DNA of 64,000 nt from a phage, in sequence record OZ470804.1; one strand, 5' to 3'. The notes beneath the pieces were generated by a model. The model was given only the letters and a program-made list of their open reading frames with translations, had not been told where the DNA came from and made no database searches. The position numbers and the translations under genes were made by a program. Shown here piece after piece: positions 11,257-36,097 of the stretch; the first letter of the stretch is position 1, and each line of letters opens with the position of its first letter.

Positions 11257-19281
<8,025 letters not shown>

Positions 19282-23517: not shown

Positions 23518-24417
23518 CTACTTACCTACTGACAAAGGTGCTTCAATCTTTCCTGCATGTTGGTAGTTACTAATTCCACCGATAAAGTCACTTGCAGTAA
23601 GATGTTTCAGGTCACTTAAAGTATTAAGTTGTAGACCAATCTCAAAAGTTGGTGCATGGAACTCTTCATTGTTCATCAGTTCATAAACCTGCTTCATATG
23701 ATTCTGATAAATCTGAGTATCTCCAAAGACACCTATCAAGTATCGTGGAGTATACCCAGTCATCTTGCAAAGAACTTCCAGAATAAAACCATAAGATGCA
23801 ATGTTAAACGGAAGTCCTAAAAAGGTGTCTACAGAACGTTGATACCATTGTAAGTCAACTTCACCTTCGTTAGTGATATAAATCTGAAACAGTACATGGC
23901 AAGGTGCTAAAGCCATAGAGTTAGCTGCAATATCTGCTGCATTCCAAGCATTAACAAGCATGTAGCGGTCTGTGATATCACCCTTCATCTTCGTTACTAA
24001 GGTCTCTAACTGGTCTACAACACAACCATTATGACCTTCAAAGTTTCTCCACTGAACTCCATAGATTCTCCCACCTGCATCCTCTAACCAATCTTGTTCA
24101 GAAGAATAATTAGAGCTTAACCAACGTTTAAAATCATCTGACCAGATAGTCCAGCGTTCTCCGTCATTTTCACCCCAAGTACGGTAACGAAGTTCACCCA
24201 GCTTATTCTCACCATTCAGGAACCATAAAGCTTCCCCAATAACTTGCCGTGTAAACACCTGTTTAGATGTTAAGAGTGGGAAACCAGTTCTCATATCAAA
24301 ACGAAATTGTGGTGGAGCAAATGCAGAGATAACGTCTCCAGTTCGTGTAGTACGCAGTTCACCAACGGATAGAACATGGTTCAGAATATTTTTGTAACTT
24401 GAATCTGCTTGTGACAT
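23518..24417 (-). CDS. thyA: thymidylate synthase
   Basis: Translation contains MALAPCH (catalytic Cys), LQWYQRSVDTFLGLPFNIASY and GDTQIYQNH, matching ThyA. Confidence 0.95.
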   Translation of the reverse strand: MSQADSSYKNILNHVLSVGELRTTRTGDVISAFAPPQFRFDMRTGFPLLTSKQVFTRQVIGEALWFLNGENKLGELRYRTWGENDGERWTIWSDDFKRWLSSNYSSEQDWLEDAGGRIYGVQWRNFEGHNGCVVDQLETLVTKMKGDITDRYMLVNAWNAADIAANSMALAPCHVLFQIYITNEGEVDLQWYQRSVDTFLGLPFNIASYGFILEVLCKMTGYTPRYLIGVFGDTQIYQNHMKQVYELMNNEEFHAPTFEIGLQLNTLSDLKHLTASDFIGGISNYQHAGKIEAPLSVGK

Positions 24418-24418
24418 A

Positions 24419-24964
24419 TCAAAAGTGTCCTTTTACTTGTGGAACATAAATTTCAAAGGTTGCTTTACCATCATCTGAGGGTCTTGACTGCACCTTTGCA
24501 AATACACGGCTATCATACAATTTATCGAAGAAGTTTTCAAAAGGTAAATACACAGTGGCCTCTTCAGTGACTTTATGGAAAACTGTATGGAAAACTACAC
24601 CAGCATACGGCAAAGCATCGACAAGAACACCTGCACCACCAATTACAAAGACATCTTCATCAATAGAGCTGTCAAGATACTTCAAAAATGCTCCAAAGGA
24701 TTCTTTACTAGCCTTAGCATACATTACATCGTCTTTGTCAAAGTCTATACCCAAATATGGAACAGAGTTCGTTAAGACGAGGTTTGTACGTTCTGGTAAT
24801 GGTTTACTACCCAGAGTCTTAAAAGTTTCATTACCCATTACTACTAAGTTATCTTTAGTGAGTCTCTTAAACTCTTGCATATCTTGCTTATGTCGAGGCC
24901 ACGGCATACCAGTTGGAGTACCAAACTCCCCATTTTCACCACTTGCAAAGATTAATTTAATCAT
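24419..24964 (-). CDS. frd: dihydrofolate reductase
   Basis: GTPTGMPWP, VVMGNETFKTLG, PLPERTNLVLT and VIGGAGVL motifs; adjacent to thyA. Confidence 0.9.
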   Translation of the reverse strand: MIKLIFASGENGEFGTPTGMPWPRHKQDMQEFKRLTKDNLVVMGNETFKTLGSKPLPERTNLVLTNSVPYLGIDFDKDDVMYAKASKESFGAFLKYLDSSIDEDVFVIGGAGVLVDALPYAGVVFHTVFHKVTEEATVYLPFENFFDKLYDSRVFAKVQSRPSDDGKATFEIYVPQVKGHF

Positions 24965-25221
24965 TTTGTAAACCCTTTCTTAATAAACCAGTTGATAACA
25001 TTCTTCACAGCTTTATTGCTATGGTAGATTAGGTGTGGTGTAGGTTGGTATGAACCATAAGCCCAGAATGATAGCTGCTCACCACAATCAACACATGTCG
25101 TACTCTCTTCAGCTATATGACCATTAACAATCACATGAACTTCACCTTGTAAATCTGTACACCCACAATGTGGACATCGGATAGGCGTCCCATCAGACTC
25201 ATAGCAGTGTTCGATTTCCAT
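24961..25221 (-). CDS. zinc-ribbon protein
   Basis: 86 aa with CPHCGC ... CVDCG cysteine pairs. Confidence 0.4.
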   Translation of the reverse strand: MEIEHCYESDGTPIRCPHCGCTDLQGEVHVIVNGHIAEESTTCVDCGEQLSFWAYGSYQPTPHLIYHSNKAVKNVINWFIKKGFTK

Positions 25222-25737
25222 TTACTTAACCTCAAAAACTGGCTCAAGAACCAATATAAAGTCTACACAGTCATCTTCTTCATCCAGAATACCATCAAAG
25301 TTCTTAGGAATGAAGTCAAAGAGGCTCATAACAAAACAGTCAGAAGTAACCCTTATAGTTCCTCCCATGTTCTCTACAGTTAACACTGTACGACTTTCTT
25401 TTACCTCCCTCAGAAGATTACCCACAAAGTCATCTAAGAAGTACTTCATCAATGACTTAAAACCTTTAGGGTAATCTGTACCAGAGTATGTTTCAATCTG
25501 AGGCACAAGCTTAGCATTTATACTAGTCTTTGTTAAGAACGTTTTAGAGAACATACTATCAGGTAACTTACAAACAGTCTTTCCAGTACCTTCATGTTCA
25601 ATCTCAACAAAACCAGCTTCATCGCCACATGTAACTATTTTAAAAGATGCTTCATTCTCATACTGTGAAGTCATAAACTTTTTAAGCATCTCTTTAAGGA
25701 AATCTGCATGAGCATCTTGTAAGTAGATATCAATCAT
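25222..25737 (-). CDS. hypothetical protein
   Basis: 171-aa ORF, tightly packed in - strand operon. Confidence 0.4.
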   Translation of the reverse strand: MIDIYLQDAHADFLKEMLKKFMTSQYENEASFKIVTCGDEAGFVEIEHEGTGKTVCKLPDSMFSKTFLTKTSINAKLVPQIETYSGTDYPKGFKSLMKYFLDDFVGNLLREVKESRTVLTVENMGGTIRVTSDCFVMSLFDFIPKNFDGILDEEDDCVDFILVLEPVFEVK

Positions 25738-25750
25738 AGTTAATCACCTA

Positions 25751-26110
25751 TTATGGGAACAAACACTTAATGTCATCGTTTTTGAAAACGAAACTTGTGT
25801 AGTTGTGACCATCAACATCTAGCCAAACAGCCTGAACATCTACACCATCAAGATTCTGGTAAAGCTCTTTGATGAAGTGGTCTTTCACAATCTGGCTACT
25901 AGTTGTTTCCAGCTTAATGTTGGAGATTGCTGAACCTACAGCCATATATCCCATGACACGTTTCTTCTCAGTATGTTTAATCTTACCATCTTTGTAAGCC
26001 ATAATGAGATTGGAGAGAATCTTCACACCATAATACTTTTCAAGGTGAGTAGGTACACCATAAAAGCCTAATGCAAAGTTTTCAGAGTGGATAATGTTTT
26101 CACGTTTCAT
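25751..26110 (-). CDS. hypothetical protein
   Basis: 119-aa ORF. Confidence 0.4.
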   Translation of the reverse strand: MKRENIIHSENFALGFYGVPTHLEKYYGVKILSNLIMAYKDGKIKHTEKKRVMGYMAVGSAISNIKLETTSSQIVKDHFIKELYQNLDGVDVQAVWLDVDGHNYTSFVFKNDDIKCLFP

Positions 26111-26111
26111 A

Positions 26112-26441
26112 TTAGTCTGCCAACCTTAAATTGAAATTAACACCAAATTTTTCACACACTTCCAACATATACTCAAGGGAAACATTCCCAGTGAGGTGGA
26201 TTATGTTGGATACACGAGCCTGAGAGATACCACAAATTTTAGCAACTTGCTCTTGAGAAAGACCTCTGGATTTAATCTCTCTCTTAAAACGATGTGCAAC
26301 GAAGTCTCTCATTTCGTCTACATCCATTGGACAAATATAACTCTCCATTTCAGCCTCTCTATCAGCCTCCCAATCATCTTGTGGGGCATAAGGGTCAAAA
26401 ACCTCATTCATCTTTCTTCTTCCGTTTGCGTGAAGTGTCAA
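26112..26441 (-). CDS. helix-turn-helix (XRE-like) DNA-binding protein
   Basis: SQEQVAKICGISQARVSNI resembles XRE-family HTH. Confidence 0.55.
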   Translation of the reverse strand: MTLHANGRRKMNEVFDPYAPQDDWEADREAEMESYICPMDVDEMRDFVAHRFKREIKSRGLSQEQVAKICGISQARVSNIIHLTGNVSLEYMLEVCEKFGVNFNLRLAD

Positions 26442-26616
26442 TCAATGAATCTATGTTTGTAGCCCTAACCTTTTCACGTTCATCGTTAAGATAATCGTCA
26501 AGAGCCTTTTCAATCTGTGAATCATCTTGACAGATAACTGTAAAGACTGTAAAGCCGTCTGTATCGTCAATTATCTTACCATAACCGCTTCTGGGATGTA
26601 ACTTTTTAAGAGCCAT
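26404..26616 (-). CDS. hypothetical protein
   Basis: 70-aa ORF with basic C-terminus. Confidence 0.3.
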   Translation of the reverse strand: MALKKLHPRSGYGKIIDDTDGFTVFTVICQDDSQIEKALDDYLNDEREKVRATNIDSLIDTSRKRKKKDE

Positions 26617-26617
26617 A

Positions 26618-27001
26618 TCAAATACCTGTGCAGCTTCTGTTTTCTAAGAAATATTCAACACCATACATAGCTTTTTGCATCAAATCTTCTTTAAACTGGA
26701 TACGATGATTGAGCATAACCTGTACATCAATATCATCATGGTGTTTCTCTTTAATATTTGCAGATTGCAGGAAATACTCTGCAAGAACGCGATACTGGTA
26801 GTCAGTCACCTTATCAGTCATCTCTGTCAAAGACTCTTCAGAGATTGGTTTAAGTAACTCGCCTTTAGATAGCGCAACACCTTTTACAATCTGGCAAGTG
26901 TCTTCTGAAACACCTGATAAGTCCACATTGGGAAGTTCTGTTGCACTAACTGGTAAACTCATTGCCATAACCGTTGCAGCAGCTAATAAAATCTTTTTCA
27001 T
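26618..27001 (-). CDS. secreted/periplasmic protein
   Basis: N-terminal signal peptide MKKILLAAATVMAMSLPVSA; first gene after candidate promoter. Confidence 0.5.
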   Translation of the reverse strand: MKKILLAAATVMAMSLPVSATELPNVDLSGVSEDTCQIVKGVALSKGELLKPISEESLTEMTDKVTDYQYRVLAEYFLQSANIKEKHHDDIDVQVMLNHRIQFKEDLMQKAMYGVEYFLENRSCTGI

Positions 27002-27045
27002 AATGACCTCAAAGTTATATTAAATTTTGTATTACATTGAGTATA

Positions 27046-27074
27046 AAAATAAGCTATAACACCTGACTTGTCAA
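27046..27074 (-). promoter_or_regulatory. sigma70-like promoter (TTGACA-N17-TATTTT) flanked by 9-bp inverted repeat
   Basis: On - strand TTGACA (27074-27069), 17-nt spacer, TATTTT (27051-27046); AAGCTATAA / TTATAGCTT inverted repeat at 27051-27059 and 27081-27089. Confidence 0.4.
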
Positions 27075-27091
27075 CAGATTTTATAGCTTAT

Positions 27092-27131
27092 TTGGCAGAT
27101 TTTTTATAAGGCTACTGCCATCCTTCCATAC
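27092..27131. repeat. 40-bp exact direct repeat, copy 1
   Basis: Identical to 28469-28508; contains TGGCAG-N16-CTGCCA inverted repeat. Confidence 0.9.
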
Positions 27132-27326
27132 CGAACCGTGCCTAACCTGACCATGCCACACCTTACAATACCAAACATTACTTAAAAACCCTCTTAGAAG
27201 ACTCTTAAGTGATGTAATCGAATTTTAATGTAGCTCCGATTAACTACCCATACCTGACCAGACCTTGCCAAACCTTACCTCACCCAACTACACCGAACCT
27301 CATTAAAAGACCCTCTTAAAAGACCT

Positions 27327-27352
27327 TTTAAAAAGGAGCCTCCGAAGAGGCT
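27327..27352 (-). terminator. rho-independent terminator (- strand)
   Basis: AGCCTC / GAGGCT stem with 4-nt loop; on - strand followed by CCTTTTT; immediately downstream of gene ending at 27364. Confidence 0.6.
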
Positions 27353-27363
27353 ACCTAGTCAAC

Positions 27364-27804
27364 TTAGAAAGGTTTTCTACGTTGCTTGTTAATGTTAGCT
27401 TTCATAGCAGCTAAATGGTTTTGCTGTTCAATCAGTCGTGAACGTTCTTGATGACTAAGCGCCATAGTGTTCACATTCTCAATTGCTTGAGTGGCTTGCT
27501 TTAAAGCTCGACCAATCTTACCAGACATTTTGCGTTTTGCAATAGTTGCTTGATGCTTAGGTTCAACCACACGATAACCAACACCCATTGAAGCAACCAG
27601 ATAAATCTTCTCTTCTTTAAGAAGCTTTTCAATAAACTTCTCAAGTCGGTTTAGACGTGTAAGTGCATAAGCCTTCATTTCATCTTCGTACTTAACAATG
27701 TCGCCTTGATAAGTTGGCTTCACAATACCTAAGAAGGTATCCATCTCAGAGTGTGATACAGTGTCACCGTAACTAAACTTTGCTGCTAATGCTTTTGTAT
27801 TCAT
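27364..27804 (-). CDS. hypothetical protein (repeat-flanked cassette gene 2)
   Basis: 146-aa ORF, basic C-terminus; no motif recognised. Confidence 0.5.
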   Translation of the reverse strand: MNTKALAAKFSYGDTVSHSEMDTFLGIVKPTYQGDIVKYEDEMKAYALTRLNRLEKFIEKLLKEEKIYLVASMGVGYRVVEPKHQATIAKRKMSGKIGRALKQATQAIENVNTMALSHQERSRLIEQQNHLAAMKANINKQRRKPF

Positions 27805-27806
27805 AA

Positions 27807-28412
<606 letters not shown>

Positions 28413-28468
28413 TTAGTTGATTGTTAATTTGTTTGTAAAGAACCCTCAACAGAAGACTCTTTAGAAAC

Positions 28469-28508
28469 TTGGCAGATTTTTTATAAGGCTACTGCCATCC
28501 TTCCATAC
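28469..28508. repeat. 40-bp exact direct repeat, copy 2
   Basis: Identical to 27092-27131. Confidence 0.9.
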
Positions 28509-28660
28509 ATTACCAAACAGTACTGTGCCACAACACACCATACCCAACCCCACCTAACTCTACCACACCTCATTAAAAGACCTTGTTTAAAGACCTTTTA
28601 AAAAGGTAAGTCTCATTTTAATGTAGCTGAGACTAACTACCCTTACCAGACCTAGCCTTG

Positions 28661-28720
28661 CCTTACCATACCGTACTTTACCTTACCGTACCGTACTTTA
28701 CCCTACCGTACCGGACAATA
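28661..28720. repeat. 20-bp tandem direct repeat x3 (iteron-like)
   Basis: CCTTACCATACCGTACTTTA / CCTTACCGTACCGTACTTTA / CCCTACCGTACCGGACAATA; strongly G-poor on + strand. Confidence 0.8.
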
Positions 28721-28838
28721 CTTAACCCGACCTCGCCCTACCGGACATCACTTAAAAACCCTTTTAAAAGACTCTTAAGTGATGCTGGTGAGTACCCGTT
28801 GGTTTATGCTGCTCAGTATACTCACCAAATTTTCTATG

Positions 28839-29027
28839 TCAACAACTTTCTAATAAAGTTTTATGAAGATTTTGCTTAACGACCCGCCTCACATGCCTGT
28901 GCTCTTTCTTAATAAAGAGTGACCTCTTCTTGATAGAGCGCCTATTCTTGTAAGTGTTGCTAGGGTACTTATCATGAACCGGACAACAGCCACCCGGATT
29001 TGTAAACTTGATAATCTCTCTTTTCAC
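28839..29027 (-). CDS. hypothetical small basic protein
   Basis: 62-aa Lys/Arg-rich ORF; overlaps a + strand ORF drawn across the repeat region. Confidence 0.25.
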   Translation of the reverse strand: MKREIIKFTNPGGCCPVHDKYPSNTYKNRRSIKKRSLFIKKEHRHVRRVVKQNLHKTLLESC

Positions 29028-30166
29028 TATTCATAATCCCTAATAACTAGCCCAACAGGGAACTGTAAAGACCCCTTACGAGTCATCTTCTGGAACTGAA
29101 CCGTTAAAGGCTTCCCGATAAACTCTTCAGGATGCTCAGCAAGATACTGTTTCTTCTCGTGTGTAGTTTTCCATGAAACATCTACAAAGACGTTAGGAAG
29201 AGTCTCTACAACGAACTTGCCATGACCACGCTTATCAGTCTTTACACCAGTCACTTTAAACTCTTCAGTGTGCATCTTCTTGTGCTTAATCAAGAAGTAT
29301 GAACGGTGACAACACTCGTAGAAGGAGTCTTCAGAGATTGAGCGGTACATTGCACCTTCAAACTCAGCTTCAACCCACTTATCATGAGCTTCATCAAACT
29401 CTTCCCAAGAATTTACACGACGAGACTTAACAGGAACAACTTTACAGCCATCTCTAAAGTCATTCAATGGTGAAGTCTCAATAATATCTCTACGCTCAGG
29501 CCACGTCTTAGTGCTGTCACAGATATCATACCAGTAAAACTTGAGTAAATGTCGGTCAGGATTGTCTTCATTTTTAATCATGGAGACAATATCTTCTAAA
29601 TCCAACCCATGAGCATAGATTTCACCATCAAATTCATCAACGTCTTTATGGAGCCTCAACATTGCCATAATGTCAGGTATTAGTTCAGTAGGAATTTTAT
29701 AAATAGTGTTCTCACGAGAATATGCTGTAAATACACTGCCAATACTTAAGTGTCTTGAAATTCTACAACGTACACCATCCAGTTTTGGTTGAGCATCAGC
29801 AGGGAACTTCAAATACTTTGCATGACTAACCTTTGCAGCATCATGAGCAAGCTGTACACCTACCTTCTCAGTATTCTGTGCAGACTCTTTTGTGTAAGCA
29901 TAACCTTTACGGTCAACTTGCTTTTTATACTTAGCAGAAACTTCAAAGAGAGCTTGCTGTTCAGCATTACGCTCATTCTTTTTACCGATGTTTTTAGGTT
30001 CTGCTGTATACTCTTCAAACATCATCTTGCCATTTTCTTTACCGTAGGTTGTAATAACTTTGTCACCTACAGCGACACATGACCAGACGTTGAAAGAACC
30101 ATCTTTATTTTGTTTGTACAGAATTGTCATTTTTAACCTCTGAGTGATACCAAGTGTAACAAGCAT
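29027..30166 (-). CDS. ATP-dependent polynucleotide ligase (DNA ligase-like nucleotidyltransferase)
   Basis: Motif I KLDGVR, motif III FDGEIY, motif IV EGAMYRS, motif V LIKHKK. Confidence 0.7.
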   Translation of the reverse strand: MLVTLGITQRLKMTILYKQNKDGSFNVWSCVAVGDKVITTYGKENGKMMFEEYTAEPKNIGKKNERNAEQQALFEVSAKYKKQVDRKGYAYTKESAQNTEKVGVQLAHDAAKVSHAKYLKFPADAQPKLDGVRCRISRHLSIGSVFTAYSRENTIYKIPTELIPDIMAMLRLHKDVDEFDGEIYAHGLDLEDIVSMIKNEDNPDRHLLKFYWYDICDSTKTWPERRDIIETSPLNDFRDGCKVVPVKSRRVNSWEEFDEAHDKWVEAEFEGAMYRSISEDSFYECCHRSYFLIKHKKMHTEEFKVTGVKTDKRGHGKFVVETLPNVFVDVSWKTTHEKKQYLAEHPEEFIGKPLTVQFQKMTRKGSLQFPVGLVIRDYE

Positions 30167-30323
30167 TACATGCGTAAAGCTCTAAGTCATTTTTATCTGG
30201 TTTATGGAAACAGTTTGACCCACAACGACATCGGAATAGTTTACCATCAACACGAAGAATGAATGTTTCAAGCTCACCATCTTCTGTAAGAACTGCGTTC
30301 TTAAATTTATCTTCTACAGTCAT
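30105..30323 (-). CDS. zinc-finger protein
   Basis: 72 aa with CRCGSNC ... CNAC cysteine clusters. Confidence 0.35.
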   Translation of the reverse strand: MTVEDKFKNAVLTEDGELETFILRVDGKLFRCRCGSNCFHKPDKNDLELYACNACYTWYHSEVKNDNSVQTK

Positions 30324-30625
30324 TTTCTCTTACCACCAATCTCTACGTCAATCACTTGAACATCACCAGCAACATCAAACTTATGAATGATGCTTTCCAC
30401 AGTGTAAGTCCAACCCTCGATGCGAACCAATTCACCTTCTCGTGGAACTATTGGGTTACGTTGGGCTACGGTTGTAGTGGAGTGAACAACATCATAACAA
30501 TAGATATAGTTTACTAGGACTTCCATCGTGAAAACCTCACTCAATAACCGTAGTGTGCGATTGACCATTTTTGCCATAGCTATAAGATGTTGTTGTTTGA
30601 GAGTTTGGACATCTGACAACAACAA
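30320..30625 (-). CDS. hypothetical protein (start uncertain)
   Basis: ORF overlaps downstream lipoprotein gene; internal Met at 30526 would avoid the overlap. Confidence 0.3.
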   Translation of the reverse strand: MLLSDVQTLKQQHLIAMAKMVNRTLRLLSEVFTMEVLVNYIYCYDVVHSTTTVAQRNPIVPREGELVRIEGWTYTVESIIHKFDVAGDVQVIDVEIGGKRK

Positions 30626-30773
30626 TATCCCTGCTTATGGCATCACCATGTAACTTATAGACTTTGCAATCTTGCATCTCTGGTGGGAGGCTATAAGAAG
30701 CGTTTTTGTCCTCGTAAGAGGGATTACAGCCAGATAGAAAGATAACACTAAGCACAATTACTACTTTCCACAT
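30537..30773 (-). CDS. lipoprotein
   Basis: Signal peptide with lipobox MWKVVIVLSVIFLSGC. Confidence 0.5.
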   Translation of the reverse strand: MWKVVIVLSVIFLSGCNPSYEDKNASYSLPPEMQDCKVYKLHGDAISRDIVVVRCPNSQTTTSYSYGKNGQSHTTVIE

Positions 30774-30960
30774 AATACTTCTCCTATTTACTGTTCACGA
30801 TGTTCTACTTCTCTGTACGTTCGTCGATAGTTTATAATAAGCTGTGCTAATTCGTTGCTTTTAACATCTGAACGTAGCAGTTGCCAATCAAAACCTTTAC
30901 CGACTCTTCCATATAAACTAAAGAATTTTACTTTGCGTTTCATTTTGGTGTTCCCAATAC

Positions 30961-31188
30961 TCAGAGGTCAACGCTAATACGTTCACCCTTAAGGACTCCT
31001 GTACGGTCTCTTGCAATCTTACCGTCAACAATAAGGATATGCGCAGACTTTAAAGATTCACTATTAAAACCTTTTACGAACTTACTAGGCATCACCACAA
31101 TAAGCATCTCTTGAATCAACTCTGGAGTGTAGCAATTATCGTGAAGTTGCTGAATAACGTCTGCAAGTGTCATTTTTGATGTCTCCAA
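30961..31188 (-). CDS. hypothetical protein
   Basis: 75-aa ORF. Confidence 0.3.
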   Translation of the reverse strand: METSKMTLADVIQQLHDNCYTPELIQEMLIVVMPSKFVKGFNSESLKSAHILIVDGKIARDRTGVLKGERISVDL

Positions 31189-31379
31189 TATTCAATATCA
31201 ATAAGTTCTTGTGCAATGCTTTTCAGATTACCTTTCAAGAAAACCTTCTCAGAACCTGAAAGAGATGAATTGTCAATTAACCTGTTCATTCTCTCAAACA
31301 ACTTCTGCTTACGGTTCTTGATAGTTTCCTTTGAAGCACCTTTCATCATTGCTGCATGGGTTCTTCCACGGTGGCTCAT
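31170..31379 (-). CDS. hypothetical protein
   Basis: 69-aa basic ORF. Confidence 0.3.
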   Translation of the reverse strand: MSHRGRTHAAMMKGASKETIKNRKQKLFERMNRLIDNSSLSGSEKVFLKGNLKSIAQELIDIEYWRHQK

Positions 31380-31430
31380 AAGCCCTCCTATATAAGATAT
31401 AGTATAAGGTACTCTTCCATGAGAACCTTG

Positions 31431-31934
31431 TCAACTTAGTTTTGCAAACTCTCCGTGGAGTTTTACAGCAGCTTCACAGTAAGCTTTATGGGCTTCTTCT
31501 GGTGTGTCAAATAAACCAAGTGATGTCCTTTTACCTCTGCATGTTATAGCTGCCCTCCACTTATTACAGTCTTTAAAGTAATGTACACCCTTGTAACCTG
31601 ATTTATTAGTCGTCTGCTTTATTCTATTTTGTGCATTTCCGTATTTATCAGTCTCCCTAAGATTAGAAATGTGATTATTACTTCTGTTACCATCAATGTG
31701 GTCTATCATCTTAGTGGGTTTGTAACCATGTTCGAACCACCAAACGAGGTGATGAATTTTTATTACGACATCTTTGAATTTAAGTACTTTGTAACCGTAA
31801 GCATCAGCACCTCCTGCAATCTGCCCAGCTTTAGCTTGTCTATTCCTGTCATACTTGTTGTAGAAGACCCCTTTGTCGGGGTCGTAAATAAAATTATCCT
31901 TGTAATCTTGAAGTGTTAGTGTACGGCGTACCAT
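31431..31934 (-). CDS. HNH homing endonuclease with AP2-type DNA-binding domain
   Basis: IDHIDGNRSNNHISNLRE (HNH_3-type) plus GVHYFKDCNKWRAAITCRGKRTSLGLFDTPEEAHKAY (AP2-like). Confidence 0.8.
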   Translation of the reverse strand: MVRRTLTLQDYKDNFIYDPDKGVFYNKYDRNRQAKAGQIAGGADAYGYKVLKFKDVVIKIHHLVWWFEHGYKPTKMIDHIDGNRSNNHISNLRETDKYGNAQNRIKQTTNKSGYKGVHYFKDCNKWRAAITCRGKRTSLGLFDTPEEAHKAYCEAAVKLHGEFAKLS

Positions 31935-34615
31935 GTCTTACCTACCTTACCAGTGCCTGTAACAAGCGTCTTACTCTTTAATCCAAGATTTTTTGATGCT
32001 TGACCATACATTCTATCAATAATTTCCTTAACATCAGGTACATCTTTGGTTGGAACCTCTAAAGAGACCTCATCGTGGTAACTACAGACCCACCTAGCAC
32101 CAATAGCGGGCTTCCTACCATTTAGAACTGTAAGCTTGCGCTCTGTTAACTCTCTGTTAGCCAAGTTAATACCCTCATTCTGCACCTGCGCCTCACTGCC
32201 CATAAGTGTGTAATTCAATAACTTATGTGGAGATTTACACCATAACCACGCTCCAGCAACTTTGATATAACCACCTTTGGCAATTGCAGAAGTTTTTCCG
32301 AAAACCTCTTCAAGTGCTTTCTTAGTTGCTTTGAAGTCTTCCTCTAACCTGTCCAGAAGCTTTTTAATCTTAGGCAGACGCACAAAGTAAGTTTGTTTAG
32401 TCAATGCACCTTCTTCCGTAGATGATGCCTTGATAGTTTTTGCAAACTTCTCGTCTCCGGCTCCAAATAACAGGGCGTAGATACCATTCTTAGCCTTCTT
32501 ACGGCCTTTTGTAATCTCGTGAAGAAGTTCCTCATCCTGTGTCTCCCTACAAAGAATAATATCCTCTTCTTTGTTAAGACCAAAGTAAATACTGTTCAGT
32601 GTATGCGCATCAGTCCCTGTATAGACTTCATAGAGGTCATTCTCAGCATCATAACGAAGATACTTGTCAGTTTCTGGGTTAAGATACTTATCAAGATGCT
32701 TACAATAGTATCTACCATCCTCTTGCTTAGTGAACTCTACTGACTCTTTGCCCTCAGTGACCGCTTTAGTGAAGTCTTCATCACCCATAAAGTTACAAAG
32801 AAGAACTAGCTGGGCTGAGTTTTGGTCTACGGAGATGATGTCTGTACCATCTTCACAAGTCCACACTTCCCTCATAGGCGCTCCATAGACAGCAGCACCA
32901 GACGGTACGTTTACAATGCCATATTGTGTCATACGTCCAGTTGAAGTACCAAACACCATTGCACCAGCACTAAGGCGACCATCTGGACGAATCTGGTTCA
33001 ACCAACCTTTTTCATCATCCTTTGAGTTCTCAATAGTTCTGCGTCGGTGCATCAAAGTATAGTACTTAGCAATCTTCTGCCCAAGCTCACCTTCAATCGT
33101 ATCATAAGATGATTCAGTAAGTTTTGGTGAAGTACGGATTAAGCAAGGTTCAAGCAAATCTGTGTATTTCTTCACAGACCAGTTATGCTCGATGTACTGT
33201 ACACCTTCGTGTTCAACATAACTCAAACCACACCGCTCAACCATTTCCTGCCACTTAGGATGCTTTGTAATCATCTTTTTATTGTCTTTGAAACGACAAA
33301 CTTTGACAGGGCGACCATCTGAGTCTTTCTTGTAATTCCAGTCATCTGGAATCCAACCAACTGATTTCAAGTAGTCTTTAACAACTGCTACCTGAGTCAT
33401 GCGAGAAACTTCGAACTCAATTGGTGTATATGGTGCATCAATCAAACCTGTGTAGCGACTTGACTCAAGTTCAAAGTGGTTAACAACATGACTGTTATAG
33501 TACTTCACAGTTTTGACTGTTTTTACTGGCTTCCAGTCTTTGCATTTCTTACCAATCTTTGCGTTCAACTCATTGCAAATTGCACGAGCATCCTTCATTG
33601 CTACAAAACCTTCCTTGTACTCTTCACCAGTTACAGAGTTGGTTGGTGTATAGCAATTTCTCTTTTCAATGTTAAAAATCTTTGTAGTTGGCTTACCAAA
33701 TGGCTTGATTTCGTATGTCTGCATCTCACCGTTACGCACCTGTTGACGATACTTTGTCTTAGGATACTTGGTAATCCTCTTCAGTCCATCTGCATGACCA
33801 AATGTTTCAACATACTCATTCCAAGCTTTTGCAAACTCTTCTCCAGTGACTTTACCTTTGGTCTTAATAGTTGGAGGAAGGTGTGGTTCAACCTCTGAAG
33901 CAAGCTCATTAGTCAACTTGTCAAGTTCCTTTACATGGAACTCCATAAGCTCTTTATCAGCTTTCCAACCATTGATAGCTTGTTGACTCATCCAGAAAGA
34001 TGTTTCTTTAGCTCGCATGTAGGTTTCATAAGTGTCTATGCCACACTTCTTAAGCTTGAGATACTCATTATCAAGTGCCCGTTTAGTTTTGGCGTTAATA
34101 CGGATATCTTCTACAACACGAGTGAAGATTTCTGCATTCCACACACCCCAATGTTCAATCTCTGGTTTACGAACACCAACACGAGCACCCCATGCAGCCA
34201 AGCCATGAGCACCTTTATAACCCTTTGGAGTTGGTCTATCCATCCACTGAACACGAGACTGGATAAGAGAATCCTGAAAGAAATTACTCCACGGCTTACA
34301 CTTTGGATTATCAAAGTTCCATAAATCCGGTGCAATGTGATTGAAAACCCACCAGTCATAACCTAGACCATTATGAATGCAAAGACGTTTTGCCTTTAAC
34401 GCAAACTCAATACCTTCACGTAAGCCACCCTTAATGTACTTGGTATACTTGTGACCGAGGATAGGCTCATCTGTAAAGACCCATACAGGTGGCTCTTCAT
34501 CGTCAGATTTATAGTCTGCGAAAGCCATTACGTGCACTTTAGTGAACTCAAGGAGTAAACCATCAGTTTCTGTATCACCAACTAAATGTAAGTTTTTAAA
34601 ATCTACGTTTTCCAT
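31916..34615 (-). CDS. DNA polymerase, family A, with 3'-5' exonuclease domain
   Basis: Exo I VGDTETDGL near N-terminus; motif B-like RKKAKNGIYALLFG; motif C YHDEVSLEV; start placed at MENVDF, preceded by GAGGGAG RBS (track ORF extends to 34645). Confidence 0.9.
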   Translation of the reverse strand: MENVDFKNLHLVGDTETDGLLLEFTKVHVMAFADYKSDDEEPPVWVFTDEPILGHKYTKYIKGGLREGIEFALKAKRLCIHNGLGYDWWVFNHIAPDLWNFDNPKCKPWSNFFQDSLIQSRVQWMDRPTPKGYKGAHGLAAWGARVGVRKPEIEHWGVWNAEIFTRVVEDIRINAKTKRALDNEYLKLKKCGIDTYETYMRAKETSFWMSQQAINGWKADKELMEFHVKELDKLTNELASEVEPHLPPTIKTKGKVTGEEFAKAWNEYVETFGHADGLKRITKYPKTKYRQQVRNGEMQTYEIKPFGKPTTKIFNIEKRNCYTPTNSVTGEEYKEGFVAMKDARAICNELNAKIGKKCKDWKPVKTVKTVKYYNSHVVNHFELESSRYTGLIDAPYTPIEFEVSRMTQVAVVKDYLKSVGWIPDDWNYKKDSDGRPVKVCRFKDNKKMITKHPKWQEMVERCGLSYVEHEGVQYIEHNWSVKKYTDLLEPCLIRTSPKLTESSYDTIEGELGQKIAKYYTLMHRRRTIENSKDDEKGWLNQIRPDGRLSAGAMVFGTSTGRMTQYGIVNVPSGAAVYGAPMREVWTCEDGTDIISVDQNSAQLVLLCNFMGDEDFTKAVTEGKESVEFTKQEDGRYYCKHLDKYLNPETDKYLRYDAENDLYEVYTGTDAHTLNSIYFGLNKEEDIILCRETQDEELLHEITKGRKKAKNGIYALLFGAGDEKFAKTIKASSTEEGALTKQTYFVRLPKIKKLLDRLEEDFKATKKALEEVFGKTSAIAKGGYIKVAGAWLWCKSPHKLLNYTLMGSEAQVQNEGINLANRELTERKLTVLNGRKPAIGARWVCSYHDEVSLEVPTKDVPDVKEIIDRMYGQASKNLGLKSKTLVTGTGKVGKTWYAVH

Positions 34616-34645
34616 TTTTACTCCCTCTAAAATCATTAACCTCAT

Positions 34646-34872
34646 ACATTACTGCAAAAAATTATAAAAAGCAAGTTGACAATGCACTTGACAAGGTGTT
34701 AATCTTTGCGAAGTGGGTTTTTACTTAAAAGGTTACTTAACAGTTTAACTATACAGATACTTTAAAAGTCTTAAAAGATTATTTAATAGCTTTTAAAAAG
34801 CTTTAAAGTATAACGTATAGAATACGTTAAGATAAAAGATTAAAACTTAATAGTTACTTAAAAGAGGTTTAC
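34646..34872. promoter_or_regulatory. divergent AT-rich control region with palindromes and short repeats
   Basis: Two TTGACA hexamers (34676, 34688); palindromes AGCTTTT-A-AAAAGCT (34788-34802) and TAACGTAT-AGA-ATACGTTA (34811-34829); repeated TTACTTAA and TTAAAAG units. Confidence 0.4.
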
Positions 34873-35295
34873 ATGCAGAAAATGTTTGTTCACCCAGACA
34901 TAGCTGACTTTGTTAGAGCTTTGCAGAAGTTGGAAGAACTTGACATTGCTGCTCAACGGGAATATGCTCACCATCACAGGAGAATGGTTGATATACAACA
35001 TGAAATAGAGTTGTCTGAAAACTATGAAGATGACTTAAAATGCTCTGTATTTGAGCATATGAAAGATGTTGCTACAGCGAGACGTAAAGCTAAAGACACA
35101 GTTGCTTTACTAGATTCTCTTAAAAAGAGGTTGCAAAGTGGTACAGACCTGTGTAATCTAGCGTCACTGATTAACGATGTTGAAACTTCTTGGGATAGGC
35201 ACTATTATCCACGTTCTGAAAAGACACTTGACTTTTCTTCATCAGAAAACTTAAAATGTTCTAGAAAGAAACTTAACCAACTGAGAGAGAAATAA
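34873..35295 (+). CDS. hypothetical protein
   Basis: 140-aa ORF, first gene of + strand block. Confidence 0.4.
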   Translation: MQKMFVHPDIADFVRALQKLEELDIAAQREYAHHHRRMVDIQHEIELSENYEDDLKCSVFEHMKDVATARRKAKDTVALLDSLKKRLQSGTDLCNLASLINDVETSWDRHYYPRSEKTLDFSSSENLKCSRKKLNQLREK

Positions 35296-35296
35296 T

Positions 35297-36097
35297 ATGA
35301 ATACTACTGTAGACCAGATGCTTGAAGAAAAAGGTATTGACGAAGCTTTCTTAATCAATGCCGTAGAAAGCATGGCTATGATTCTTCGTGGAAACAACTA
35401 CACAGAACAGTTTATGCCTGCAAGCTATAACCTGCCTAAAGACAAGTCTGATAACGGTGCTTTTGCAGAACAGGTTAATATGATGTTGACAGACACTACA
35501 CTTGCTCTAGCATCTATTGCGGTTGGTGTTGATGCACTTGCTGAGTTCATTTTTTATGAAATGCAAAAGAATGACTATATCAGGATGTCAGACGAAGATA
35601 AGGAACTGTTACTGACTAAGGATACTGATTTCATTATTGATACGCTTATCTCATCAACAAGTGCTGTTATGGCTGTTCTTGAGAAGCGTATGGAAGAGAA
35701 ACTTTCACGATATGAAAAGCTTGATTGGGGCGTAGAAGAATTAAACCCACGAATCAAAGAGATTATCCAGCAAACTAAAGAGTCTTTAGAAGAAGCTGTT
35801 GAAAATGACACTGTAGCTGATATAGAACCTCTTCAGGTGAAAGTTGCACTGATGATTCCAGCTATTTCTACAATGATGAATATCGTTGCACTAATCCAAC
35901 TTTCACAGATGATGGGTGTGAGTATGGAGTTCATTGAGGAGATGACTGGTGGTGTCAGTATGCAAGCAATCAATGATGTTTTGGTGAACATTGGTGCTTC
36001 AATCATTGAAGAGAAACTACGCATCAACTTCGGTGATGATTTTGTGAAGCAACTCTCAGCTATGGCTGAAAAAGAGTCTGCCGAGCAACTGCACTAA
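35297..36097 (+). CDS. hypothetical protein
   Basis: 266-aa ORF followed by terminator hairpin. Confidence 0.4.
   Translation: MNTTVDQMLEEKGIDEAFLINAVESMAMILRGNNYTEQFMPASYNLPKDKSDNGAFAEQVNMMLTDTTLALASIAVGVDALAEFIFYEMQKNDYIRMSDEDKELLLTKDTDFIIDTLISSTSAVMAVLEKRMEEKLSRYEKLDWGVEELNPRIKEIIQQTKESLEEAVENDTVADIEPLQVKVALMIPAISTMMNIVALIQLSQMMGVSMEFIEEMTGGVSMQAINDVLVNIGASIIEEKLRINFGDDFVKQLSAMAEKESAEQLH

Follow-up and report, generated by a model that had tools for sequence, protein, structure and literature searches.

A putative divergent early-transcription control region between the DNA polymerase and gp97 genes of a Felix-O1-like phage

The genus Felixounavirus comprises the Felix-O1-like myoviruses, which belong to the subfamily Ounavirinae. 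In the genome paper on Felix O1, divergent early promoters were assumed to lie between genes 96 and 97, but no promoter-like sequence was found in that gap (Whichard et al. 2010, PMC3185647). RNA of gene 96 was detectable within 5 min as timed by reverse-transcription polymerase chain reaction, the passage of internal terminators was left open, and proteins altering polymerase specificity were not apparent (PMC3185647). The locus treated here is the same one in a near-identical genome, namely the 257-bp gap at positions 34616–34872 of a 64,000-nucleotide stretch of phage DNA from sequence record OZ470804.1 (the whole stretch is called the window), and, unlike in the 2010 paper, promoter sites are proposed for it in both directions. 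Judging by its anatomy, its conservation and its counterparts in relatives, the gap is probably the principal control region for divergent early transcription in a Felix-O1-like phage, made up of a rightward promoter (P_R), a leftward promoter (P_L) and a regulatory leader.

A search with a 1-kb query around the gap matched 273 phage records, 215 of them Felixounavirus at 95% identity or more, and the best match was the Escherichia coli phage vB_EcoM_ASO1A (ASO1A) at 99.7% identity. By these matches the window is a Felixounavirus genome, and the gap corresponds to that between Felix O1 genes 96 and 97. In the ASO1A record the left flank of the gap encodes DNA polymerase on the minus strand, and the right flank encodes, on the plus strand, a conserved hypothetical protein like Felix O1 gp97, a "minor tail protein", a deoxynucleoside monophosphate (dNMP) kinase and a primase/helicase. 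The gene map of the window has structural genes on the plus strand at 1–23473, nucleotide metabolism and replication genes on the minus strand at 23518–34615, and plus-strand genes again from 34873, with the gap as the sole divergent junction. It extends from the DNA polymerase ATG at 34615 (minus) to the gp97-like ATG at 34873 (plus). An earlier note, drawn up by a model from the sequence, had described an AT-rich spacer between divergent genes at this position, and that description holds: the gap has a G+C content of 25.7% compared with 39.2% for the window, and contains no open reading frame (ORF) of at least 20 amino acids.

The gap was aligned across 24 distinct sequences from Felixounavirus, Suspvirus and Mooglevirus, obtained from GenBank and IMG/VR. 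Its length is 257 bp in Felixounavirus, 257 bp in Suspvirus and 259 bp in Mooglevirus, and it is 256 bp in the Kolesnikvirus phage SPARTY and the unclassified Salmonella phage PMBT37, with Rouille (238 bp) and Arno18 (300 bp) as outliers. Positions 34666–34872 are 84–87% identical between the three genera, whereas the identity at third codon positions is 64–66% for DNA polymerase and 55–62% for gp97. In 100-bp windows, the gap is conserved to the same level as the polymerase gene and far above the genes to its right. Because identity in the gap so exceeds that at third codon positions, the whole right-hand 200 bp is, by this comparison, under purifying selection that goes beyond a few hexamers. 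In Kolesnikvirus and PMBT37 (five loci), a gene for an HNH homing endonuclease separates the DNA polymerase gene from the control region, and the gap still measures about 256 bp despite this insertion. A 60-amino-acid ORF annotated within the PMBT37 gap is probably an over-call.

P_R is predicted on the plus strand at 34676–34705 as a sigma-70 extended -10 promoter of the form TTGACA-N18-TGn-TAATCT, in which the -35 hexamer TTGACA (34676–34681) is followed by an 18-bp spacer ending in TGT (TG at 34697–34698) and the -10 hexamer TAATCT (34700–34705). The -35 hexamer is invariant in the alignment, and the distal part varies as TGnTAnTCT, with changes confined to the n positions (34699 is T or G in relatives, and the hexamer is TAATCT or TAGTCT). 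As such promoters predict variation limited to these positions, P_R was assigned to the extended -10 type, whose other features it shares: a near-consensus -35, the pattern TG-n-TAnnnT and a spacer within 16–19 bp. Its transcript is predicted to start at about 34711–34713. The GenBank records of ASO1A and AYO145A carry an annotated, consensus-predicted promoter at 34676–34703 that overlaps P_R, and other promoters predicted for this phage have the form TTGACA(A)-N17/18-TA(G/A)nnT, three of them in the window using TAGAAT. Just downstream, at the predicted P_R start, TTGCGAAGTGGGTTTT (34706–34722) is the most G+C-rich piece of the gap and is near-invariant across the three genera. A short G+C-rich stretch likewise occupies this position in distant relatives, and the element could be discriminator-like or initial-transcribed.

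P_L, the promoter predicted for the DNA polymerase operon, lies on the minus strand at 34646–34674 and reads TTGCTT-N17-TAATGT, with the -35 hexamer TTGCTT running from 34674 to 34669, a 17-bp spacer, and the -10 hexamer TAATGT from 34651 to 34646; its transcript is predicted to start at about 34637–34640 on the minus strand. No variation affects the -35 block, the spacer differs in sequence but measures 17 bp in four of four lineages checked, and the -10 hexamer keeps the pattern TAnnGT (TAATGT, TAGGGT, TAGTGT or TAAGGT). Positional homologues that fit the consensus better are found in Kolesnikvirus (TTGACT-N17-TACTAT) and in L045, a divergent relative from IMG/VR (TTGTTT-N17-TAGAAT, with TGA before the -10). 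The minus-strand TATAAT running from 34666 to 34661 was rejected as the P_L -10, as neither Suspvirus nor Mooglevirus conserves it and no suitably spaced -35 accompanies it. The putative -35 hexamers of P_L and P_R stand back to back, 1 bp apart, and L045 has a like layout (AAACAA-GAG-TTGACT). In these respects the locus resembles extended -10 and back-to-back promoters of enterobacteria and their phages, with a consensus -35, TG at -15/-14, A at -11, T at -7 and a shared upstream region. Promoter anatomy, the pattern of conservation and the positional homologues in distant relatives together bear out the proposal of a divergent control region. No transcriptome, start-site map or origin mapping of a Felix-O1-like phage was found in the literature searched.

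What sets P_R apart from known extended -10 promoters is a second perfect copy of TTGACAAGGTG inside its spacer, 12 bp after the first. This tandem, -35-like copy (34688–34698, plus strand) is invariant, whereas the 5 bp separating it from the first copy vary. Two TTGACA hexamers 12 bp apart had been reported here, and they are indeed present, at 34676 and 34688; only 4 of 5000 dinucleotide-preserving shuffles of the region, the chance test applied to the sequence motifs, reached two. When the genome of about 87 kb was scanned as the window plus positions 1–31000 of ASO1A, exact TTGACAA-N5-TTGACAAGGTG turned up nowhere but in this gap and at ASO1A 24062, which is the other divergent junction and corresponds to "P41" of the Felix O1 paper; the 23-bp module is identical at both. 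Both promoters also carry ACTTAAAAGG at about +10, followed by further units of the repeat described below. The other divergent junction (ASO1A 24050–24211) reads GTTGACAA-N5-CTTGACAAGGTG, then TAGGCT and a perfect TATAAATA, a T4 late-promoter word that is possibly there by coincidence, and continues with ACTTAAAAGGTT, more units, a 7-bp inverted repeat (AGATATC-N6-GATATCT) and the first gene.

A scan of IMG/VR located the exact 23-bp module directly before TAnnnT in unrelated phages, with TACATT as the hexamer in contigs resembling marine T4-like cyanophages and TATGAT in contigs resembling Clostridium phages. Since it is also present in unrelated phages, the module appears to be a recurrent strong-promoter design, and its distribution suggests convergent or shared use of the double TTGACA. 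The thirteen IMG/VR loci concerned have an A-rich tract upstream of the module, and the sole matches of their contigs, at 66–73% identity over less than half the length, are to marine T4-like cyanophages and related marine viruses or to Clostridium phages. The second TTGACA was rejected as a -35 in its own right because no -10-like hexamer lies 16–18 bp downstream on either strand, and a sigma-54 reading of the 12-bp-spaced pair was rejected because the essential GG and GC dinucleotides are absent by eye.

Downstream of P_R lies a leader of about 160 bp with about 21% G+C, in which an array of CTTAAAAG-like units (consensus CTT(T)A(A/C/T)AG) occupies 34724–34808 of the plus strand. The units start at 34724, 34736, 34749, 34760, 34770, about 34782, 34790 and 34801, a spacing of 10–13 bp (mean about 11), and the last two units of the leader follow at 34846–34867 (CTTAATAG at 34846 and CTTAAAAG at 34857), overlapping with AAGAGG (34862–34867), the ribosome-binding site of gp97. 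Exact CTTAAAAG occurs at 34724, 34770 and 34857, TTACTTAA occurs at 34721, 34733 and 34854, and all leader units are on the plus strand and thus in the sense orientation. The strict form CTT(T)AAA(A)G was observed five times against 0.23 expected and the loose form eight times against 0.71 expected, counts reached in none of 5000 shuffles in either case. Across the intergenic DNA of the window, TTAAAAG/CTTTTAA is the most over-represented AT-rich 7-mer (18 occurrences against about 2 expected), alongside TTGACAA and a terminator-stem word, and the leader is the only place in the window with at least four units per 100 bp. Substitutions in relatives conform to the motif (CTTAAAAG becoming CTTAATAG or CTTAACAG, for instance). 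In Arno18, Kolesnikvirus and L045 the homologous promoter is likewise followed by an equivalent array, the clearest being that of L045, with five tandem 12–13-bp units (CTTTACAGGATT, CTTTTAGAGATT and others). Strong intrinsic curvature from phased A-tracts was rejected as a feature of the region, as the periodicity power ranks only about 14th in the window.

The units had also been said to recur near 27.3 and 28.6 kb, and this recurrence is real: TTACTTAAAAA is at 27178, CTTAAAAG at 27315, and CCTTTTAAAAAGG at 27324 and 28594. They belong to a module of about 100 nt present in four copies, and at 27.3 and 28.6 kb they are antisense to local transcription. The modules flank an insert in the interval 27002–29026, about 1.6 kb without counterpart in ASO1A, situated between a gene ending at 27001 and the DNA ligase gene and containing two minus-strand ORFs (27364–27804 and 27807–28409) with no Pfam hit. 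On the plus strand each module consists of an ACC-rich periodic stretch, which reads (GGTNNN)n on the transcribed minus strand, followed by CATTAAAAGACC, CTCTTAAAAGACC and TTTTAAAAAGG units, and an exact 40-bp direct repeat is found at 27092 and 28469. Possible readings of the insert are a mobile cassette and a structured element in repeated copies. Outside the window, a 1.5-kb noncoding block between convergent terminators (ASO1A 14733–16270) is dense in CTTAAAAG, CTTAACAG, CTTGTTAG and CTATAAAG units in both orientations and includes the least stable 150-bp segments of its 31-kb stretch. The physical genome end falls inside this block, as the 581-bp direct terminal repeat of Pr103Blw (locus 1–1212) maps to ASO1A 15120–15700.

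Two palindromes had been picked out in the leader, and both are perfect: palindrome 1, AGCTTTTAAAAAGCT at 34788–34802, has 7-bp arms and a 1-nt centre, and palindrome 2, TAACGTATAGAATACGTTA at 34811–34829, has 8-bp arms and a 3-nt loop (TAACGTAT-AGA-ATACGTTA). As evidence in themselves they were set aside, since composition-matched shuffles produce an arm of at least 7 in 35% of cases, an arm of at least 8 in 14%, and a pair of separate palindromes in 6.5%. Palindrome 1 falls within the unit array and also within an imperfect dyad of 55 bp (34757–34811), and its symmetry is broken by an A-to-G change in AYO145A and Suspvirus and by a T-to-C change in Sf13-like Mooglevirus. With the symmetry lost in these three lineages, palindrome 1 was rejected as a conserved dyad; it is the word CTTTTAAAAAG that is kept. 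Palindrome 2, a conserved 7-bp stem with a 3-nt loop, encloses TAGAAT (34818–34823), the commonest predicted -10 hexamer of the phage. Its seven inner pairs are paired in 24 of the 24 distinct sequences, with compensatory double changes at two of them (AU exchanged with UA in 9 sequences, CG replaced by UA in 4) and a loop change from AGA to AAC. Because of these two compensatory changes, palindrome 2 is, on the evidence of the alignment, under selection for its symmetry.

The operator cluster proposed for the gap by the earlier note survives in part. Cro/CI operators, MetJ metboxes and omega heptads offer the nearest resemblance, with palindrome 2 as a 17–19-bp dyad over a -10-like hexamer and the units as short near-palindromic elements (CTT-NN-AAG) near promoters. 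A dyad of 14–19 bp overlapping a promoter element, as in operators of the Cro/CI type, is what palindrome 2 provides, and the units are real and conserved. By contrast, operators of that type are usually several related sites bound by a cognate helix-turn-helix dimer and palindrome 2 is single-copy (no further copy at up to one mismatch in the window or up to two in ASO1A 1–31000), palindrome 1 is broken in several relatives, the units stand about 11 bp apart rather than contiguously, and no cognate protein was identified among those examined. Palindrome 2 was accordingly rejected as a repeated operator. A further comparison is with T4 middle promoters, in which a MotA box, (a/t)(a/t)(a/t)TGCTT(t/c)A, lies 11–13 bp upstream of the -10 hexamer. 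The invariant, MotA box-like AAAAGCTTTA (34796–34805) precedes TAGAAT by 12 bp, but departs from the box in having A in place of T.

In the control-region reading that we favour, host sigma-70 RNA polymerase would start leftward at P_L into the operon for DNA polymerase, ligase and nucleotide metabolism, and rightward at P_R into the operon for gp97, dNMP kinase and primase-helicase. The leader, with at least eight CTTAAAAG-like units about one helical turn apart that are interrupted by one conserved inverted repeat (7-bp stem, 3-nt loop) around TAGAAT, would hold regulatory sites that set or time rightward expression. These may act as protein-binding DNA sites, as a second, factor-dependent start at TAGAAT, or as both. 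Several observations weigh against this account. A simple consensus promoter scan calls neither P_R nor P_L, the -10 hexamer of P_R matches TATAAT at three of six positions, the leftward promoter in the ASO1A record runs from 34774 to 34748 and is not at P_L, and the second TTGACA copy has no role in a two-promoter model. TAGAAT at 34818–34823 has no -35 partner, compensatory changes fit a nucleic-acid hairpin more naturally than a protein site, and a single copy in the genome is unusual for the operator of a general regulator. Finally, we infer promoter firing, start positions and the binding of units and hairpin from sequence and comparison alone.

The search for a protein that might bind the units or the hairpin adds to these points, as no such DNA-binding protein was identified among the proteins examined. 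The first rightward product, gp97, falls in a PHROG to which no function is assigned, matches no Pfam entry and no PDB sequence, and is modelled by AlphaFold as a long helical hairpin (predicted local distance difference test score 72.5) for which Foldseek returned no hit at E ≤ 0.001; with neither an informative fold nor a match, it was rejected as the binding protein. None of ten neighbouring small proteins has a DNA-binding Pfam domain. The protein encoded at 26112–26441, which had been put forward as a possible regulator, does have a true helix-turn-helix of the Cro/C1 type (HTH_3, Pfam, E = 6e-10), but nothing links it to the gap.

The control-region account is not exclusive of two others, an origin of replication and an RNA leader, which are likewise compatible with each other. 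In the T7 primary origin and in T4 oriF and oriG, a promoter is combined with an AT-rich unwinding element. The gap might be, or might also be, a transcription-activated origin of this type, in which P_R would open or prime the AT-rich leader and the units would be iteron-like; we regard this as unlikely. The least stable duplex of the window, at window sizes of 100, 150 and 200 bp, is indeed 34721–34870, with a mean of -1.05 kcal/mol per bp compared with -1.284 (standard deviation 0.049), a difference of about 4.7 standard deviations. This AT-rich segment lies directly downstream of a promoter predicted to be strong and between the genes for DNA polymerase and primase/helicase, its short direct repeats are about one helical turn apart, and its conservation reaches well past what promoter hexamers need. 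T7 and T4 transcription-activated origins and lambda iteron origins have the same general plan of a promoter followed by an AT-rich segment with repeats in helical phase among replication genes.

Against an origin, neither the promoter module nor the units are unique to this site. Both also occur at the other divergent junction, where the order of promoter and AT-rich segment is the same, and the densest unit arrays are in the noncoding block of the terminal repeat. Of the features of an iteron origin, the AT-rich unwinding element is present, but the units are 8–9 bp long at a spacing of 10–13 bp, not iterons of 17–22 bp, and no initiator-like protein was recognised in gp97 or the neighbouring proteins. 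Sites for host factors are likewise missing, as 34600–34890 contains no DnaA box (one poor hit at up to two mismatches), IHF site or GATC, and Fis and CRP scans of the region gave nothing useful. The reversal of GC skew at the gap coincides with the switch in transcription direction and is inseparable from it. Destabilised duplex sites are, as a rule, typical of intergenic regions that carry promoters (PMC1468432). The suggestion that the gap is a candidate origin has only circumstantial support, from its duplex stability, its upstream promoter and the replication genes on either side, with features that are not unique and the lack of host-factor sites and a recognisable initiator standing against it.

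Alternatively, the 160-nt P_R leader, with its CUUAAAAG units and 7-bp hairpin, might act as RNA that loads a factor or modifies RNA polymerase, either in processive antitermination of the nut/put type or in control of mRNA stability or translation, and would thus carry transcription past the many intrinsic terminators within the operon, a role that we also hold to be improbable. A hairpin would account for the compensatory changes in palindrome 2, the recurrent A-to-G change in palindrome 1 gives a U-G wobble in plus-sense RNA only, and the sense orientation of all leader units would suit an RNA element. The other tandem-module promoter, at ASO1A 24062, has a similar leader with ACTTAAAAGG at about +10 and AGATATC-N6-GATATCT, and these transcription units contain annotated terminators, the passage of which the Felix O1 paper left open (PMC3185647). 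However, only one hairpin covaries, folding of the 171-nt leader is no more stable than that of shuffled sequence (z = -0.63), which speaks against a structured leader RNA as a whole, and the other predicted stems are invariant and therefore uninformative. Rfam searches, run on the region with E values up to 10 and on the entire window at the gathering score, matched nothing, and no N- or Q-like protein was identified. The units are antisense at 27.3 and 28.6 kb and occur in both orientations in the terminator-flanked terminal noncoding block; because of these orientations, the unit is better read as a DNA-level word.

A wider proposal builds on that word. An 8-mer like CTTAAAAG or CTTAACAG might be the recognition word of a DNA-binding factor common to all Ounavirinae, with sites at the terminal-repeat block, in the two tandem-promoter leaders and in a few other gaps, and the array at 34724–34864 with its hairpin might couple replication (through a transcription-activated origin) or genome-wide timing to the genome ends; this is speculative and quite unlikely. 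That the gap is nothing more than an AT-rich spacer with simple constitutive promoters and repeats arising from low complexity is disfavoured and highly improbable, since, although palindromes of such size arise in 14–35% of composition-matched shuffles and the A-tract periodicity is unexceptional at about 14th in the window, it leaves without account the 84–87% identity between genera against 55–66% at synonymous-rich sites, a unit excess matched in none of 5000 shuffles, the covariation of palindrome 2, and a gap length near constant in four genera (257, 257, 259 and 256 bp, with Rouille at 238 and Arno18 at 300).

Two annotations beside the gap merit comment. The DNA polymerase gene is annotated in the ASO1A and wV8 records from an upstream ATG at 34636 and in Suspvirus and Mooglevirus records from the ATG equivalent to 34615. 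In Mooglevirus, reading from the equivalent of 34636 meets a stop codon, and a GAGGGAG Shine-Dalgarno sequence precedes the ATG at 34615, which has a strong ribosome-binding site, AGAGGGAG (34621–34628, minus strand), with the block TACTCCCTCT invariant in the 24 sequences. Because of the Mooglevirus stop and this Shine-Dalgarno sequence, 34615 was taken as the start, and the longer gene model is probably an error. In many records the gene at 35297–36097, second in the rightward replication operon, is called a "minor tail protein" (phrog_4251), a name that looks doubtful amid early replication genes. It lacks a Pfam match and, at 53–58% nucleotide identity between genera, is less conserved than any other gene nearby.

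The literature searched contained no account of the tandem -35, of the array of units, of the covarying hairpin or of the conservation across genera. What is newly resolved is the pair of predicted promoters, the tandem -35, a unit word in common with the genome ends and a single covarying hairpin; the class of element itself is ordinary. Felix O1 is a classic Salmonella typing phage, relatives of which are widely proposed for biocontrol and therapy, and coordinates are now proposed for promoters that the 2010 genome paper assumed but did not find. Should the units turn out to be bound by a factor that coats the genome ends as well, the gap would be a regulatory or replication organiser of a whole phage subfamily; otherwise, it would be an ordinary, well-conserved divergent promoter region.

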